Origin: an uncultured Ruminococcus sp.
GTDB taxonomy: Bacteria > Bacillota > Clostridia > Oscillospirales > Ruminococcaceae
NCBI GenBank assembly: GCA_946534605.1
Contig: CAMNCU010000003.1
Coordinates: forward strand, 954 to 64,953
Length of the DNA stretch: 64,000 nucleotides
Direction of reading: 5' to 3'
Shown here piece after piece: positions 52,134-58,330 of the stretch. The position numbers and the translations under genes are program-made. Each line of letters starts with the position of its first letter. The first letter of the stretch is position 1. The notes under the pieces were generated by a model, which saw nothing but the letters and a program-made list of their open reading frames with translations, did not search any database and was not told where the DNA came from.

Positions 52134-52679
52134 TTACTTGACTTCAAAAATCCTGATATTTTCGGCAGGAATACTGGTTTCTTCCAGAATGATTTCTTTC
52201 ATGACCGCCGCGCCGGAAGCGTCCAGCCCGTCGGTACGGACAACGACCTTCGCGCTCTGCCCGTCCAGATAGACGACGCAGTCAGAAAAGCCCTGCGATT
52301 TAATCAGCGATTCGATAGTGCCTTCTTTTTCGATAAGACTTGCGACTTCGGCAGCGTCGAGCGCGGCGGTCACGGCTTCGTCATCGGTGACATCGCCGCC
52401 GCCAATCATCGTCTGTAAGGTCTGGACGGCTTCGTCACGGCTGACCGTCTTTTCCAGTCTGGCTTTCGCGAAATAGTCGGCAGAAGGGTCAGGCTCTGCG
52501 CTGACGAATTCTGTATCTCCATAATGCGGCGTATCGTTTTCCAGCTCTGTGACGGGCGTGGAGACCGTCAGACCCGTGCGCGAGTAAGTATAGTTCACAT
52601 AGACTGCCGCCGCGAGCAGGACGGTCAGACAGCTGAGAATCAGCTGTTTCTTTCCGATAATCAGAGAAGGCTTCTGCAT
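52134..52679 (-). CDS. spoIIIAH: Stage III sporulation protein AH
   Basis: 181 aa with an N-terminal TM segment (LILSCLTVLLAAAVYVNY) and a YscJ/FliF-like C-terminal domain. Last gene of the spoIIIA set. Confidence 0.75.
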   Translation of the reverse strand: MQKPSLIIGKKQLILSCLTVLLAAAVYVNYTYSRTGLTVSTPVTELENDTPHYGDTEFVSAEPDPSADYFAKARLEKTVSRDEAVQTLQTMIGGGDVTDDEAVTAALDAAEVASLIEKEGTIESLIKSQGFSDCVVYLDGQSAKVVVRTDGLDASGAAVMKEIILEETSIPAENIRIFEVK

Positions 52680-52693
52680 GTGTTATCATCCTT

Positions 52694-53185
52694 TCAGGGT
52701 ATGTTGTCCAGTTTTGTGACATAAATCTGTGAGAGTTTCAGACCGCAGGCGACGGAGACTGTCTGGTAGACGATTTCCTGAACGGTCACCGCGCCGCCGC
52801 CCTCACAGGCGACGACGACACCCGTCACTGCCGGAAGCGATACCGATTCGACAAGGGCTTCCTTCTTCGTACCGCCGACGGTAACATAACGGTTCTGGGA
52901 ATCCTGTGCATAATGACAGGTCTCACTGCCGGAAAGCGTCACCAGAACTTCCGCTCTGCCGACACCGTCAATCTGACAGAGCATTGCTGAAAGTTCCTTC
53001 TGGAGTGCCGTCCGGTAGGCTTCCTGACTGGTGATTTCCGGAAGTTCTGCGGATTCCGGCGTTTCTTCCTGGCAGGACGACAGAACCGTGCAGAGAATCC
53101 CAATCAGCCCGATGAATACCAGAATATGCACCAGATATTCTTTTTTAAGGCTGGCTTTGTACCGATTCCAGAATTTCCGAAACAT
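52694..53185 (-). CDS. spoIIIAG: Stage III sporulation protein AG
   Basis: 163 aa with an N-terminal TM segment and the conserved C-terminus VTGVVVACEGGG...VSVACGLKLSQIYV. Confidence 0.8.
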   Translation of the reverse strand: MFRKFWNRYKASLKKEYLVHILVFIGLIGILCTVLSSCQEETPESAELPEITSQEAYRTALQKELSAMLCQIDGVGRAEVLVTLSGSETCHYAQDSQNRYVTVGGTKKEALVESVSLPAVTGVVVACEGGGAVTVQEIVYQTVSVACGLKLSQIYVTKLDNIP

Positions 53186-53600
53186 GAAGATTCACCCCCT
53201 CACCGAGCAGTTCCCGGAGCGTTCTGAGCGTCTGCTGAAAGTCGTCACAGGTCACACTGACATCACTAATAGATATGCAGTGATTCTCGTCAATATGCAG
53301 AGAAACGGAAATTTCGCTGCAGGAAATGCCCTTCTGCTCCAGAACGGAAGCAAGGGTCTGTTTTACGGTCTGTTCGGTGAGAGCGAGGGCGGTGCGGTCA
53401 GCCTGTGACTGCTGAACACTTCCCGGAATATCAGAGAATTCCGGACGGACAAACGCCGGAAGCAGGCTCACCAGAAACATCAGCGAAACCAGAAAGCGCA
53501 CCTGTTTCCGGAGTGCGTTTTCCGGACAGAGGAACAAGCAGACCGAGACGGCAATACTCAGCAGGCAGACGGTCAGCACGGAAGATTTCAGTGTTTCCAA
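53145..53600 (-). CDS. spoIIIAF: Stage III sporulation protein AF
   Basis: 151 aa from TTG 53600, 6 nt after AAAGGAG. Two N-terminal TM segments, as in SpoIIIAF. The track's ATG 53699 has no RBS and would translate a hairpin repeat. Confidence 0.65.
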   Translation of the reverse strand: METLKSSVLTVCLLSIAVSVCLFLCPENALRKQVRFLVSLMFLVSLLPAFVRPEFSDIPGSVQQSQADRTALALTEQTVKQTLASVLEQKGISCSEISVSLHIDENHCISISDVSVTCDDFQQTLRTLRELLGEGVNLHVSEILESVQSQP

Positions 53601-53628
53601 GTTTATCTCCTTTCTGGCTTGCACCTTT

Positions 53629-53751
53629 GTGAACAGATGAGAATCACCGTCAAGGGGCTGGCTTTTAAGCCCCTTGCGGTTATTCTTGTTCACACACATG
53701 TTTTACCGCAATATATTTCTATATATTATATAGCCACTTGCGGTAATTTTT
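53629..53751. repeat. Structured module A: long imperfect hairpin plus a second hairpin with an AT-palindrome loop and T-run
   Basis: Hairpin 53629..53693 (GTGAACA...TGTTCAC, with inner CAAGGGGCT / AGCCCCTTG). Hairpin TACCGCAA 53704..53711 / TTGCGGTA 53738..53745, whose loop contains CTATATATTATATAG, followed by ATTTTT. Confidence 0.6.
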
Positions 53752-53862
53752 GCGGCAATCCGGCGGCAGAGGGCGGCACGGCTGAACGCGCGTTCAAAAA
53801 TGAAAAATGTAAAGTCGACACGACAAAATCAGGGGGAAGATGCCCTTTTCTGGTTTTGCGTT

Positions 53863-53972
53863 TGTCAATGAACGAGCGGCAGGGTTACAGGGAACGGACT
53901 TTAAGTCCCCTGTTGCTCATTGACAGGGACAATATTTTTCTATATTATATAGGGTGATTTCCCTGTTTTTTT
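53863..53972. repeat. Structured module B (diverged copy of module A)
   Basis: Hairpin 53863..53925 (TGTCAATGA...TCATTGACA, inner ...GGACTTTAAGTCC...). Hairpin ACAGGGA 53923..53929 / TCCCTGT 53960..53966, whose loop contains CTATATTATATAG, followed by a T-run. Confidence 0.6.
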
Positions 53973-54013
53973 CCCTAGGCAGCAAAACAATACTAACTGA
54001 CCGGGAGAAAACT

Positions 54014-54156
54014 TGCGCAAAACGAAGATTTTGTGCAGTTCCTGAATACGGCTTCCACCCGGGTGGAAAAAACGTTCACCCGAGTGAACAGAATTTGTAA
54101 ACTCGAGTTTACAAAATGTTGAGTCGACTCAACAAAAATGTGACATCAATGTCACA
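54014..54156. repeat. Phased array of six different short palindromes/hairpins directly after the spoIIIAE stop
   Basis: 54014..54037 TGCGCAAAA-cgaaga-TTTTGTGCA. 54053..54068 TTCCACCCGGGTGGAA. 54074..54089 GTTCACCCGAGTGAAC. 54094..54115 TTTGTAAACTCGAGTTTACAAA. 54118..54133 GTTGAGTCGACTCAAC. 54139..54156 TGTGACATCAATGTCACA. Confidence 0.7.
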
Positions 54157-54164
54157 AAATCCCG

Positions 54165-55175
54165 TCATGTACTGCTCACCGCCGCCAGAATCCCCGTACT
54201 CACACAGAACATCACCCCGAATGAAGCCGAGACCGAAAACCCTACCGAAATCATCGCTTCCAGATTCCGGAACAGCCTCTGCAACGATTCCAGCGCGAAG
54301 ACTTCTGATACTGCCGCCGCTGTCCCCGTCAGTATCTTCCAGAGAAAAAATTCGATAATTATCGGCAGTAATATCGATAAGACCGCGATAACCCCCGTCA
54401 TCCCGGCAGTCGATTTCAGAACGTTCAGACTGCCCAGCACTGCCGCGTAAGCGTCCGATACTGCTCCCCCGACAAACGGCACAGCCCCGGCTATCGCGTA
54501 TTTCGCAGCTTTTGTTCCGGCTCTGTCCGCCGTTACGGAAACGACACTCTGCACTGACAGAAAGCCCAGAAACAACGCCATCAGAAAGCCAAGCACCCAG
54601 ACCGTGAACTTCTGAAACAGCGTCAGAATACCGTTCAGAGAGAGTTCCGGCGTGACTGCCTCCGTCAGACTGACTGCCAGTCCCATCGTCAGCACCGGAA
54701 ACAGCACCCGAACGGCGATTTCCAGCGCAAGATTACAGAGCAGCAGCACTGCCCCCTGATACCCTGCCGAAGCTGTCACATGTCCGCTGACCGCCAGAAT
54801 CCCCCCGAAGATTCCCGAGAAGGTCACCATAAAATCTGCCGAATGCGTCAGCACTTCCGCTGCCTGCTGAAAGGCTTCCGTCAGCGGACTGATGAGAATC
54901 CCCACCGCACACAGTACCGCTGTGACATCACAGATTTTTGAGATTCCGGATTTCTCGCTCCGGAGACTTCCGGCAAGCGCGGAAAGCAGAATCACCCCTG
55001 TGAGCAGTCCGAGCGTCTGCAAGGGCGCGGAAATCCGGTTCTGTACCATTTCCAGAACCTGTCCGGCGAATTCCGGAAGCTGTAATTCCGACAGCGATTC
55101 TGTATCGGGAATTTCCGCCGGCGCGTCTTCCAGAAGCGTTTTCAAAATTTCATCATAAGTATAGTCCTGATTCAC
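54165..55175 (-). CDS. spoIIIAE: Stage III sporulation protein AE
   Basis: 336 aa polytopic membrane protein, Gly/Ala-rich TM segments. Position and overlap with spoIIIAD match the operon order. Confidence 0.8.
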   Translation of the reverse strand: MNQDYTYDEILKTLLEDAPAEIPDTESLSELQLPEFAGQVLEMVQNRISAPLQTLGLLTGVILLSALAGSLRSEKSGISKICDVTAVLCAVGILISPLTEAFQQAAEVLTHSADFMVTFSGIFGGILAVSGHVTASAGYQGAVLLLCNLALEIAVRVLFPVLTMGLAVSLTEAVTPELSLNGILTLFQKFTVWVLGFLMALFLGFLSVQSVVSVTADRAGTKAAKYAIAGAVPFVGGAVSDAYAAVLGSLNVLKSTAGMTGVIAVLSILLPIIIEFFLWKILTGTAAAVSEVFALESLQRLFRNLEAMISVGFSVSASFGVMFCVSTGILAAVSST

Positions 55176-57268: not shown

Positions 57269-58297
57269 TTATTCTGTCAGACCGACAATCATTTTCATAA
57301 TCGTCAGAGAATCGGAAGCGTCGATTTTCTCGTCCTTGTTGGCATCCGCGGCGAGTTCCTGCGCAGAATTCAGCTTTTCTTTGCCGAGAATTGCTTTATT
57401 GAGAATAATCACATCCAGAATATTCAGTTTGTCGTCCAGATTCAAATCCCCGGCTTTGATTTCTACTGCTGCATCTGTAGGGAAAATTTCTTCCGGGTCA
57501 GGCTTTTTCACTATACGGAATTCAAAATCACATAATTCCAAAAAGCCCTGTTCCTGACAGTAATTTTTTATCCGGTCAATGTCTTCCTTTGTGTATGCTG
57601 TCACCGCTATGCTCATGCCTGTAACATTGAAAATACTCCCGTAATGATTGCGGGATACAAAACCCTCATATCCGTTGCTTTCCATGAATGCCTGAATCTG
57701 TTTTGCAGCCTCTGTTATGGACATTACCAGATTCTCATCCATCTGATAGACAAGATGATAGTCAATCGTATATTTTTCCGAAAAGCCCTGTTCTTCGCAG
57801 TAAGCTTCCATCAATTCTTTTATTTTTGTGCTTGCACACATGACAGTGAGAGAATTGTGGAAATAATCATAGAAAACGCGGTATGCATAGTCAGCCCCTG
57901 CCAGTTCACCGAGATATTTTTCCGTCTGCAATGCGGCGGAAATCAGCGCGTTCTTTTCTTCTTCGGGAAGTTCCGGAAGAATTTCACCGTCAAATTTCAG
58001 GAAAAACTGATATGTCACACCGTCTGTCAGATTTTCCTGCTGACAATATTCCATCATGTTGCTTTTTACATTTTCATAATGCGCCTGACTTCCGGTGTTT
58101 ACTACAACAGAAATGAGGTTCTGTTCTTCGTCACAGGTGATAGTATACAGCTGTACTGACGGCGGAATTGCATCTGCAATCTGATTGCAGATACTTTGTA
58201 CTGAAATTTCCGTTTCTCCGGCGAAAACGGGAATACTGATTTCGGACTGTATACAGCACAGGAACGCCAGCACAGCGGCTAAGAGTTTCTTTTTCAT
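57269..58297 (-). CDS. Secreted protein: three 'YCxEQGF' repeat modules plus a C-terminal dockerin
   Basis: ATG 58297 after GAGGTG, then a signal peptide. Modules end in MEYCQQENL, MEAYCEEQGF and KNYCQEQGF. Dockerin KAGDLNLDDKLNILDVIILNKAILGKEKLNSAQELAADANKDEKIDASDSLTIMKMIVGL (57272..57457). Confidence 0.65.
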   Translation of the reverse strand: MKKKLLAAVLAFLCCIQSEISIPVFAGETEISVQSICNQIADAIPPSVQLYTITCDEEQNLISVVVNTGSQAHYENVKSNMMEYCQQENLTDGVTYQFFLKFDGEILPELPEEEKNALISAALQTEKYLGELAGADYAYRVFYDYFHNSLTVMCASTKIKELMEAYCEEQGFSEKYTIDYHLVYQMDENLVMSITEAAKQIQAFMESNGYEGFVSRNHYGSIFNVTGMSIAVTAYTKEDIDRIKNYCQEQGFLELCDFEFRIVKKPDPEEIFPTDAAVEIKAGDLNLDDKLNILDVIILNKAILGKEKLNSAQELAADANKDEKIDASDSLTIMKMIVGLTE

Positions 58298-58330
58298 AAA
58301 AAGCACCTCGTTTCTGAAAATTTAAATAAT

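Follow-up and report, generated by a model that had tools for sequence, protein, structure and literature searches.

Two related modules, A and B, lie in the gap between the genes spoIIIAE and spoIIIAF of the spoIIIA sporulation operon, in a 64,000-nt stretch of DNA from an uncultured Ruminococcus sp. (contig CAMNCU010000003.1; hereafter referred to as the window). We conclude that they are probably orphan chromosomal copies of an iteron-type cassette of temperate phages, likely a replication origin. The original prediction had taken them for a possible pair of tandem small RNAs (sRNAs) antisense to spoIIIA; comparison with phage genomes removes this false lead of antisense sRNAs in a sporulation operon. 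The two modules of about 110 nt, with two hairpins each, that had been described at 53629-53751 and 53863-53972 are indeed present and fold far below shuffled sequences. Coordinates are positions in the window, and L numbers denote comparison loci (genomes or viral contigs). The main features of the modules are as follows.

53608-53780, minus strand: module A, a phage cassette copy spanning the last codons of a primase/helicase gene through the Shine-Dalgarno sequence (SD) of rusA; 93% identity over 173 nt to L044/L046
53629-53693, no strand assigned: module A long hairpin (hairpin 1), a 65-nt imperfect hairpin with apex GGCTGGCTTTTAAGCC
53703-53746: module A hairpin 2, stem TTACCGCAA/TTGCGGTAA, loop with the palindrome CTATATATTATATAG (53719-53733), then a T-run at 53747-53751
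53703-53758, no strand assigned: module A iterons and A+T core, from iteron matches and a layout aligned with the phage copies
53689-53717, plus strand: sigma-70-like TTCACA-17-TATATT inside module A, a 10/12 consensus match only (simple scan)
53846-53984, minus strand: module B, a partly decayed cassette of the same type, derived from another phage lineage, with iteron AGGGAAA
53863-53925, no strand assigned: module B long hairpin (hairpin 1), outer stem TGTCAATGA/TCATTGACA, apex GGACTTTAAGTCC
53923-53929 pairing with 53960-53966: module B hairpin 2 (ACAGGGA/TCCCTGT), loop with CTATATTATATAG (53940-53952), then a T-run at 53967-53973
53923-53976, no strand assigned: module B iterons and A+T core, with the inverted iteron at 53923-53930 and the A+T palindrome at 53940-53952
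53920-53948, plus strand: sigma-70-like TTGACA-17-TATTAT inside module B, an 11/12 match (simple scan)

Modules A and B match an intergenic cassette of siphophages

Homologues of module A were searched for by a pattern scan followed by blastn screening. The match in viral contig IMGVR_UViG_3300028454_000257 (L044/L046) includes a 116-nt identical core and is intergenic, located between the primase/helicase gene and rusA of a siphophage. Genes for a SNF2-type helicase and a 744-aa protein, the module, and genes for RusA, an ArpU-like regulator and the small terminase subunit follow one another on this contig, which is a genuine siphophage. The 744-aa protein combines a PriCT-2 domain with a RepA-like helicase domain (match to RSF1010 RepA, PDB 1g8y). 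Module A and L044 share a segment that begins within the final codons of the 744-aa gene and extends to the SD of rusA. Module A is also present at the same spoIIIA site in genomes of Ruminococcus sp. UBA7014-like (L003, L011, L176-185), and copies of the L003 type retain GTGTCACCCCCTGACAC, the last ~14 nt of the phage gene including its stop codon. Since the stop codon of a phage gene has been kept, the direction of transfer was from phage to chromosome.

Module B is 80% identical to L048 and 84% identical to L047 over positions 53914-53984 and was also aligned with L190. In viral contigs its apex pattern gave 0 matches and a longer B-type pattern matched only L048 and L190; no closer donor of module B was found there. 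Thirteen unpaired nucleotides break its long hairpin, with a folding energy of -28 to -31 kcal/mol compared to -37 to -47 kcal/mol in L048.

No match to the region was obtained by blastn against 50,697 GenBank phages and 72,556 plasmids, and its homologues of phage origin come from uncultured viral contigs only. A scan of 241 million metagenome records returned a single further real copy of the module, again at spoIIIA. With the A+T-palindrome pattern, the metagenome scan yielded 35 stretches, 34 of them chance matches in A+T-rich DNA and one real (L011), while one of six stretches from the viral scan was real (L044). Fragments of a mobile element, the outcome that the original prediction had named as contrary to its own reading, are thus what the comparison revealed, with both A and B copying a phage intergenic cassette. 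Contig L196 (IMGVR_UViG_3300012974_000203) carries TTACCGCA/TTGCCGCAAAAATTACCGCAA repeats at 640-700, without the A+T palindrome and the hairpin.

The viral collection contains at least 425 stretches that encode a relative of the 744-aa protein. The family comprises temperate siphophages of Firmicutes, in which a protein of ~740 aa joins PriCT-2, a RepA-like helicase and a C-terminal winged-helix-like domain; Faecalibacterium phage FP_Lugh, Streptococcus Javan prophages and Enterococcus phage EFC-1 are members. The cultured phage FP_Lugh has the same cassette layout, unannotated. In phage homologues the cassette begins 0-20 nt past the stop codon of the primase/helicase gene and presents, in order, at least two direct iterons with an A-run spacer, an A+T-only palindrome, an inverted iteron, a hairpin of 60-70 nt and the SD of the next gene. 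In the hairpin, the iteron motif recurs in the outer stems, the inner G+C stem covaries and the apex is semi-conserved (~CTTAAAGC). For layout counts, 80 of the 425 stretches were fetched, providing 65 distinct regions after the stop codon, with coding controls from the same loci. Three features (repeats, an A+T palindrome and a G+C hairpin within 120 nt) were scored by crude criteria.

Non-AT 7-mer repeated at least 3 times: 64/65 phage regions; coding controls, 27
A+T palindrome: 53/65 phage regions; coding controls, 8
All three features: 37/65 phage regions; coding controls, 0

The same order is found in the window. In module A an inverted iteron, TTACCGCAA in plus-strand reading, is located at 53703-53711 and direct iterons at 53738-53746 and 53750-53758, so that TTRCCGCAA repeats of opposite orientation (two direct, one inverted) flank the A+T-only palindrome at 53719-53733. 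A copy with one mismatch is present at 53674-53682, and three of the four exact TTRCCGCAA matches in the 64 kb fall inside this iteron core. Aligned with the phage copies, module A reads TTGCCGCAAAAA-TTACCGCAAGTGG-[CTATATAATATATAG]-AAATATA-TTGCGGTAA, then the hairpin, which consists of an outer stem GTGAACA/TGTTCAC, an iteron-like middle stem ACCG.CAA/TTGCGGT and an inner stem CAAGGGGCT/AGCCCCTTG, with CTTAAAAGCC as its sense-strand apex. Module B reads CTAGGGAAAAAAA-CAGGGAAATCACC-[CTATATAATATAG]-AAAAATATTG-TCCCTG, then the hairpin; its direct iterons (AGGGAAA, minus strand) lie at 53958-53964 and 53970-53976, and AGGGAAA repeats of opposite orientation flank the palindrome at 53940-53952, as in module A. 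The T-runs, previously taken for the 3' ends of sRNAs, lie between the direct iterons in both modules: they are A5-A7 spacers read on the other strand (TTGCCGCAAAAATTACCGCAA, AGGGAAAAAAACAGGGAAA) and are conserved in phages. Likewise, the supposed terminator stem of hairpin 2 is the inverted iteron pair around the A+T-only palindrome, with a loop of 26-30 nt.

The repeats change together with the C-terminal domain of the phage helicase

Phage pairs whose helicase bodies reach 90% identity or more fall into two groups: in the 65 pairs with repeated 7-mers in common, identity over the last 75 residues is 97%, and in the 139 pairs without repeated 7-mers in common it is 21%. Loci L046 and L047, for example, have bodies 90-98% identical and C-termini 62-66% identical, and their iterons differ (TTACCGCAA vs TTGCGAAA). 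The tail contains a helix-turn-helix (HTH) signature (…AEFLGVT.KTV..R…) and gives weak winged-HTH matches in Pfam (HTH_DeoR, 22.7 bits, above cutoff). The cassette and the C-terminal domain therefore appear, from these comparisons, to be exchanged together. In phage loci L046-L125 the DNA-binding tail (last ~75 codons) and the cassette behave as one swappable unit. A conserved origin-like cassette with a matching C-terminal DNA-binding domain is thus defined for temperate phages of gut, rumen and streptococci, a very large family.

Because the repeats change with the helicase tail, and because cognate repeats around an A+T palindrome directly follow the gene, the phage cassette is, by analogy, most likely a replication origin. 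By the same analogy, the C-terminal domain of the initiator/helicase would contact the iterons on either side, after which the protein would melt the A+T palindrome and load itself; the long inverted repeat may then be exposed as a hairpin that serves as a loading or priming signal.

Two known systems resemble this arrangement. In the origin of staphylococcal pathogenicity islands (SaPI), iterons flank an AT-rich region immediately downstream of rep and are bound by a C-terminal winged-helix domain (PMC9371898). The phage cassette is likewise located directly downstream of the initiator-helicase gene, with short iterons pointing in opposite directions on the two sides of a central AT-rich region. 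Specificity resides in the C-terminal winged-helix domain of the SaPI protein and varies among elements (PMC9371898); in the phages the covariation of tail and repeats may reflect the same. Unlike SaPI Rep, to which it has no sequence homology, the phage helicase is RepA-like (SF4). The cassette also differs in having an extra long hairpin with a conserved apex, the copies in the window are orphans, and the phage system is known from sequence alone. At oriV of RSF1010, RepC binds the origin, the RepA helicase unwinds it and the ssiA/ssiB hairpins are priming signals (PMC8567376). The order of iterons, AT-rich stretch and large inverted repeat (in RSF1010 a single-strand hairpin initiation signal) is similar, and the helicase domain of the phage protein matches RepA. 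In contrast to RSF1010, where iteron binder, helicase and primase are three proteins, the phages have both helicase and DNA-binding domains in one fused protein; hairpin sequences show no relation between the two systems, and a priming role of the cassette hairpin is a guess.

Several points weigh against an origin. Among the papers searched, none was found that describes an origin in this phage family, and the term is here derived from anatomy. The helicase, being SF4-type and no homologue of SaPI Rep, makes the analogy with SaPIs functional only. By the crude criteria used, ~40% of relatives are without one of the three features. Besides or in place of an origin, the cassette could contain transcription signals: a sigma-70-like match is present in each module, and TTGACA-17-TATTAA follows the hairpin in some relatives. 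Finally, the double insertion of a 170-nt cassette at one site is unexplained, with no terminal inverted repeats or target duplication seen.

The long hairpin covaries, with no clear strand preference

Module A folds with -50.3 kcal/mol compared to -22.0 +/- 3.3 for shuffled sequences (z -8.5), and module B with -35.7 compared to -23.3 +/- 3.0 kcal/mol (z -4.1); neither energy was reached by any of 200 shuffles. The opposite strands fold about equally well (z -8.4 for A and -4.5 for B), so folding picks no strand. The caution with which the original prediction had left RNA and DNA cruciform side by side was justified. Its view of A and B as two diverged copies of one architecture, with pairing kept by compensatory change, holds as well: in an alignment of A, B and phage relatives, 13 of 31 consensus pairs were kept through changes on both sides. 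The inner hairpin stem occurs in at least 10 different perfect sequences at a conserved offset, with loops resembling (T/G)AAAGC. The long hairpin is shown to be conserved as a structure.

Folding of whole segments favoured the strand antisense to the phage genes (the plus strand of the window) in 25 of 35 modules, with 125 vs 71 G.U pairs. A cleaner comparison of arm with arm did not bear this out: wobble-type changes numbered 28 vs 21 and transversions 87, with no G.U bias on either strand. The absence of wobble bias and the predominance of transversions is what a palindrome maintained at the DNA level would give. The differences between A and B that look compensatory result from iteron-specificity switching plus real covariation of the hairpin.

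The spoIIIAE-spoIIIAF gap is a composite insertion

The modules occupy part of a larger gap with the following features and counterparts in relatives.

spoIIIA operon genes, minus strand (Pfam): spoIIIAA 56265-57212; AB, AC, AD; AE 54165-55175; AH 52134-52679
54165-54167, minus strand: spoIIIAE stop codon
53601-54164, minus strand: composite 564-nt insertion between spoIIIAE and spoIIIAF (Pfam of flanking genes, empty sites in relatives, fold z)
54056-54156, minus strand: five tandem short hairpins h1-h5 (TGT-N4-T[CT]G[AG]-N4'-ACA), 21-22-nt period, each -7 to -8 kcal/mol and then a sense-strand T-run
54015-54036, minus strand: hairpin X' (GCGCAAAA...TTTTGTGC), orthologous to TGCACAAAA...TTTTGTGCA, located right after the spoIIIAE stop of L003
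53808-53825, minus strand: h0', a decayed short-hairpin copy, orthologue of the intact TGTAGAATCGATTCTACA in L003
53607-53610, minus strand: SD (GGAG) of spoIIIAF, contributed by the inserted cassette; it falls in the part homologous to the SD region of phage rusA, CCAGAAAGGA (alignment)
Junction in UBA3665 (L004; AE 68% identical): 14-nt gap
Junction in L186: 14-nt gap
Junction in L187-189: 4-nt overlap
Junction in Ruminococcus sp. UBA7014-like (L003, L011, L176-185; AE 80% identical): 262-nt gap

Since the site is empty in three relatives, the 564-nt gap is shown by this comparison to be an insertion. In the sense direction it contains the short hairpins h1-h5, hairpin X', module B, the decayed h0', module A and the SD, so that hairpin elements make up all of 53601-54164 and modules A and B belong to a larger composite. 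Folding of the entire gap gives z = -7.5 and -6.5 on the two strands. In the UBA7014-like genomes, the 262-nt gap contains a single hairpin X, a single short hairpin and module A, without module B.

Comparison with relatives places the start of spoIIIAF at TTG 53600, preceded by GGAG; the gene itself was recognized by a weak Pfam match of the open reading frame ending at 53145. The SD at the empty site of L004 differs from the one supplied by the cassette. Gene callers start SpoIIIAF at ATG 53699, inside module A, giving proteins of 184 aa (P0001) and 182 aa (P0002), while SpoIIIAF of insert-free relatives has 145-147 aa and starts at the position of TTG 53600. ATG 53699, which is in frame with rusA in the phage, was rejected as a start: it has no SD, and the relatives begin at the position of TTG 53600. 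The N-terminal extension is, on this comparison, probably an annotation artefact, and the annotation is corrected accordingly, the 184-aa call beginning within phage-derived DNA. Just 5' of the SD on the sense strand (53616-53625, minus strand) there is a 3-bp hairpin with a GNRA-type loop, GGC-GAAA-GCC in the phage (L044), GGC-GGAA-GCC in L003 and GGT-GCAA-GCC in the window; this may be a coincidence.

Capture and state of the cassettes in the chromosome

We propose that module A was derived from a phage like IMGVR_UViG_3300028454_000257 and module B from a related phage with a different iteron specificity, and that both would have been captured between spoIIIAE and spoIIIAF by illegitimate recombination. 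The right-hand junctions of both modules are at the SD (CCAGAAAGGAG, CCAGAAAAGGG), which suggests microhomology-mediated capture.

Module A of the window is 95-98% identical to that of the UBA7014-like species, compared to 81-82% for flanking coding DNA and 63% for the non-coding DNA just upstream. In L194 and L195, which have the same iteron, the module is visibly more diverged (~70% identity, estimated by eye on aligned sequences); the identity of module A is therefore not dictated by functional constraint alone. The simplest reading of its near-identity to the phage would be recent transfer or gene conversion from an L044-like phage. The two Ruminococcus species also have different junctions: one retains an intact primase remnant where that of the other has decayed, and the spacer between SD and start differs at 4 of 5 positions. 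An origin-type cassette without a phage gene, captured twice in an essential operon and with one copy kept, or refreshed to be, nearly identical to a circulating phage in two Ruminococcus species, constitutes a host-phage link.

Two further observations concern module A and its surroundings. The first ~50 nt of spoIIIAF (53551-53600) have one difference compared to L003, against an identity of ~80% over the remainder of the gene. A conversion or transfer tract encompassing module A could end here; alternatively, the N-terminal membrane segment could be under constraint. L002, a Logan contig with an identical spoIIIAE, ends in the A+T palindrome of module A (window ~53726); such a break in the assembly would be expected if several contexts of the module coexist in that sample.

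A tblastn search of the 64-kb window with the primase revealed nothing. The modules are orphans without an initiator gene and not a complete replicon, and so the cassettes cannot act alone. On their own, the copies would be passive DNA for spoIIIA transcription to read through; expression of spoIIIAF-AH must either cross the gap or arise within it. Among possible roles in the host, an inert relic refreshed by phage recombination ranks first in likelihood, followed by co-opted control of spoIIIAF-AH and then by an origin active in trans that provides a decoy or local amplification. That the orphan cassettes still function in trans, with the matching initiator of an infecting phage or induced prophage binding and firing them, seems unlikely to us. 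The pristine state of module A would be compatible with such activity and equally with simple recent gene conversion.

A known system of a related kind is phage-encoded resistance (Per), which uses cloned phage origins, for example a 302-bp non-coding element of S. thermophilus phage Sfi21, and has copy-number-dependent effects (PMC6356513). In the host, a Per element can be activated by an infecting phage and can interfere with it (PMC6356513). Module A and module B resemble Per in being short non-coding phage origin-like elements that reside in a host apart from the phage; they differ in that there is one chromosomal copy of each cassette type and the phage family is another. If active, the copies would be a natural origin decoy or a site of phage-triggered local replication. 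They could titrate the initiator as a chromosomal 'Per' decoy, with two tandem specificities against two phage lineages, or amplify the spoIIIA region for packaging, or else form a physical obstacle in the spoIIIA operon, by which infection would become coupled to an arrest of stage-III sporulation.

Alternative explanations

That A and B are paralogous plus-strand sRNAs antisense to spoIIIA, ending in hairpin 2 and a U-run, now seems highly improbable. The strong folding of both modules, the plus-strand T-runs after hairpin 2, a terminator-like scan that flags 53949-53966 on this strand and the compensatory pairs all agree with it. However, the opposite strand folds equally well, the arm mismatches show no G.U bias, and the T-runs are iteron spacers conserved in phages. 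With a loop of 26-30 nt in hairpin 2, there is no compact G+C stem-loop directly before the U-run. No convincing sigma-A promoter had been seen for the sRNAs, which stands for the DNA upstream of the modules, where a plus-strand scan found no sigma-70-like match upstream of 53629 or 53863, and does not stand for the modules themselves, where such matches exist; from these internal positions transcription would begin past the palindrome. In Rfam no family matched, either for the whole window at gathering thresholds or for the region at E <= 1, and the homologues are phage intergenic DNA that covaries with a DNA-binding domain. Two tandem antisense sRNAs are thus unsupported. A different possibility, that the modules are a small miniature inverted-repeat transposable element (MITE)-like element, autonomous or not, that also landed in phages, we consider equally improbable. 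It would fit with the occurrence of one ~170-nt sequence in two or more unrelated contexts, with the double insertion at a single site and with the strong inverted repeats. Against this, the phage cassette always follows the primase/helicase gene and is family-wide, with lineage-specific repeats matched to the protein, while the chromosomal copies carry the 3' end of the phage gene, which indicates transfer from phage to chromosome. Terminal inverted repeats and target-site duplication were not seen when the junctions of the window, L003, L044 and the empty sites were inspected by eye. The 64-kb window contains no other copy, and the collection scans found only the spoIIIA site and phages.

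Less improbable, though still doubtful, is that the cassette serves chiefly for transcription control, as an operator, promoter and stem-loop between the phage replication genes on one side and rusA and the late regulator on the other, and was co-opted in the host to uncouple spoIIIAF-AH from spoIIIAA-AE. Uncoupling could rely on an internal promoter, on a 5' hairpin for processing or stabilisation, or on the short hairpins upstream acting as attenuators. Sigma-70-like hexamers are indeed found inside the modules. In module B the -35 hexamer coincides with the base of the long hairpin and the -10 hexamer with the A+T palindrome, a geometry also present in L047 and L048 and absent from more distant phage modules; some relatives have a good promoter match just past the hairpin (for example TTGACA-17-TATTAA in L057). 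The SD now used by spoIIIAF comes from the cassette, three terminator-like hairpins follow spoIIIAE on the sense strand, and Guillot and Moran reportedly described an internal spoIIIA promoter in B. subtilis in 2007. However, the promoter-like matches in A and B point away from spoIIIAF, no promoter match was found on the sense strand within 53000-54800, the short hairpins are weak (-7 to -8 kcal/mol), and in relatives 14 nt between the genes, or even an overlap, suffices. Covariation of the repeats with the helicase C-terminus favours an origin over an operator.

The cassette may also be compared with elements of T4-type phages called PeSL, which Arbiol et al. reportedly described in 2010 as small non-coding cassettes bounded by gene ends that act as recombination units, reportedly with many repeats per genome, an early promoter and a stem-loop. 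Unlike with PeSL, there is here one cassette per phage, and its iterons are matched to a DNA-binding domain. A transcription attenuator, built from segments 1:2, 2:3 and 3:4 with a common motif and an alternative 2:3 pairing, was considered and dropped: the motif is the iteron, which covaries with a protein domain.

Short hairpins and neighbouring genes

The short hairpins of the gap follow the unit TTTTGT-N4-T[CT]G[AG]-N4'-ACATTTT, in which the N4 cores differ and are self-complementary. At -7 to -8 kcal/mol each, they would be weak terminators. No unit was found elsewhere in the 64 kb (0.6 expected by chance). In viral contigs the unit occurs in 50 stretches, often in 2-5 copies with a 35-nt period, and N4 is perfectly complementary in 29 of 71 units; these lie in lysogeny modules, near genes for CI-like repressors, Fic, TM2 and integrase.

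Two genome matches (Ruminococcus sp. UBA7014 and UBA3665), together with genes for dockerin and serpin domains, assign the window to a cellulolytic Ruminococcus. These genes are found directly upstream of spoIIIAA (57269-58306; L001 1-3907), a cellulosome-type context.

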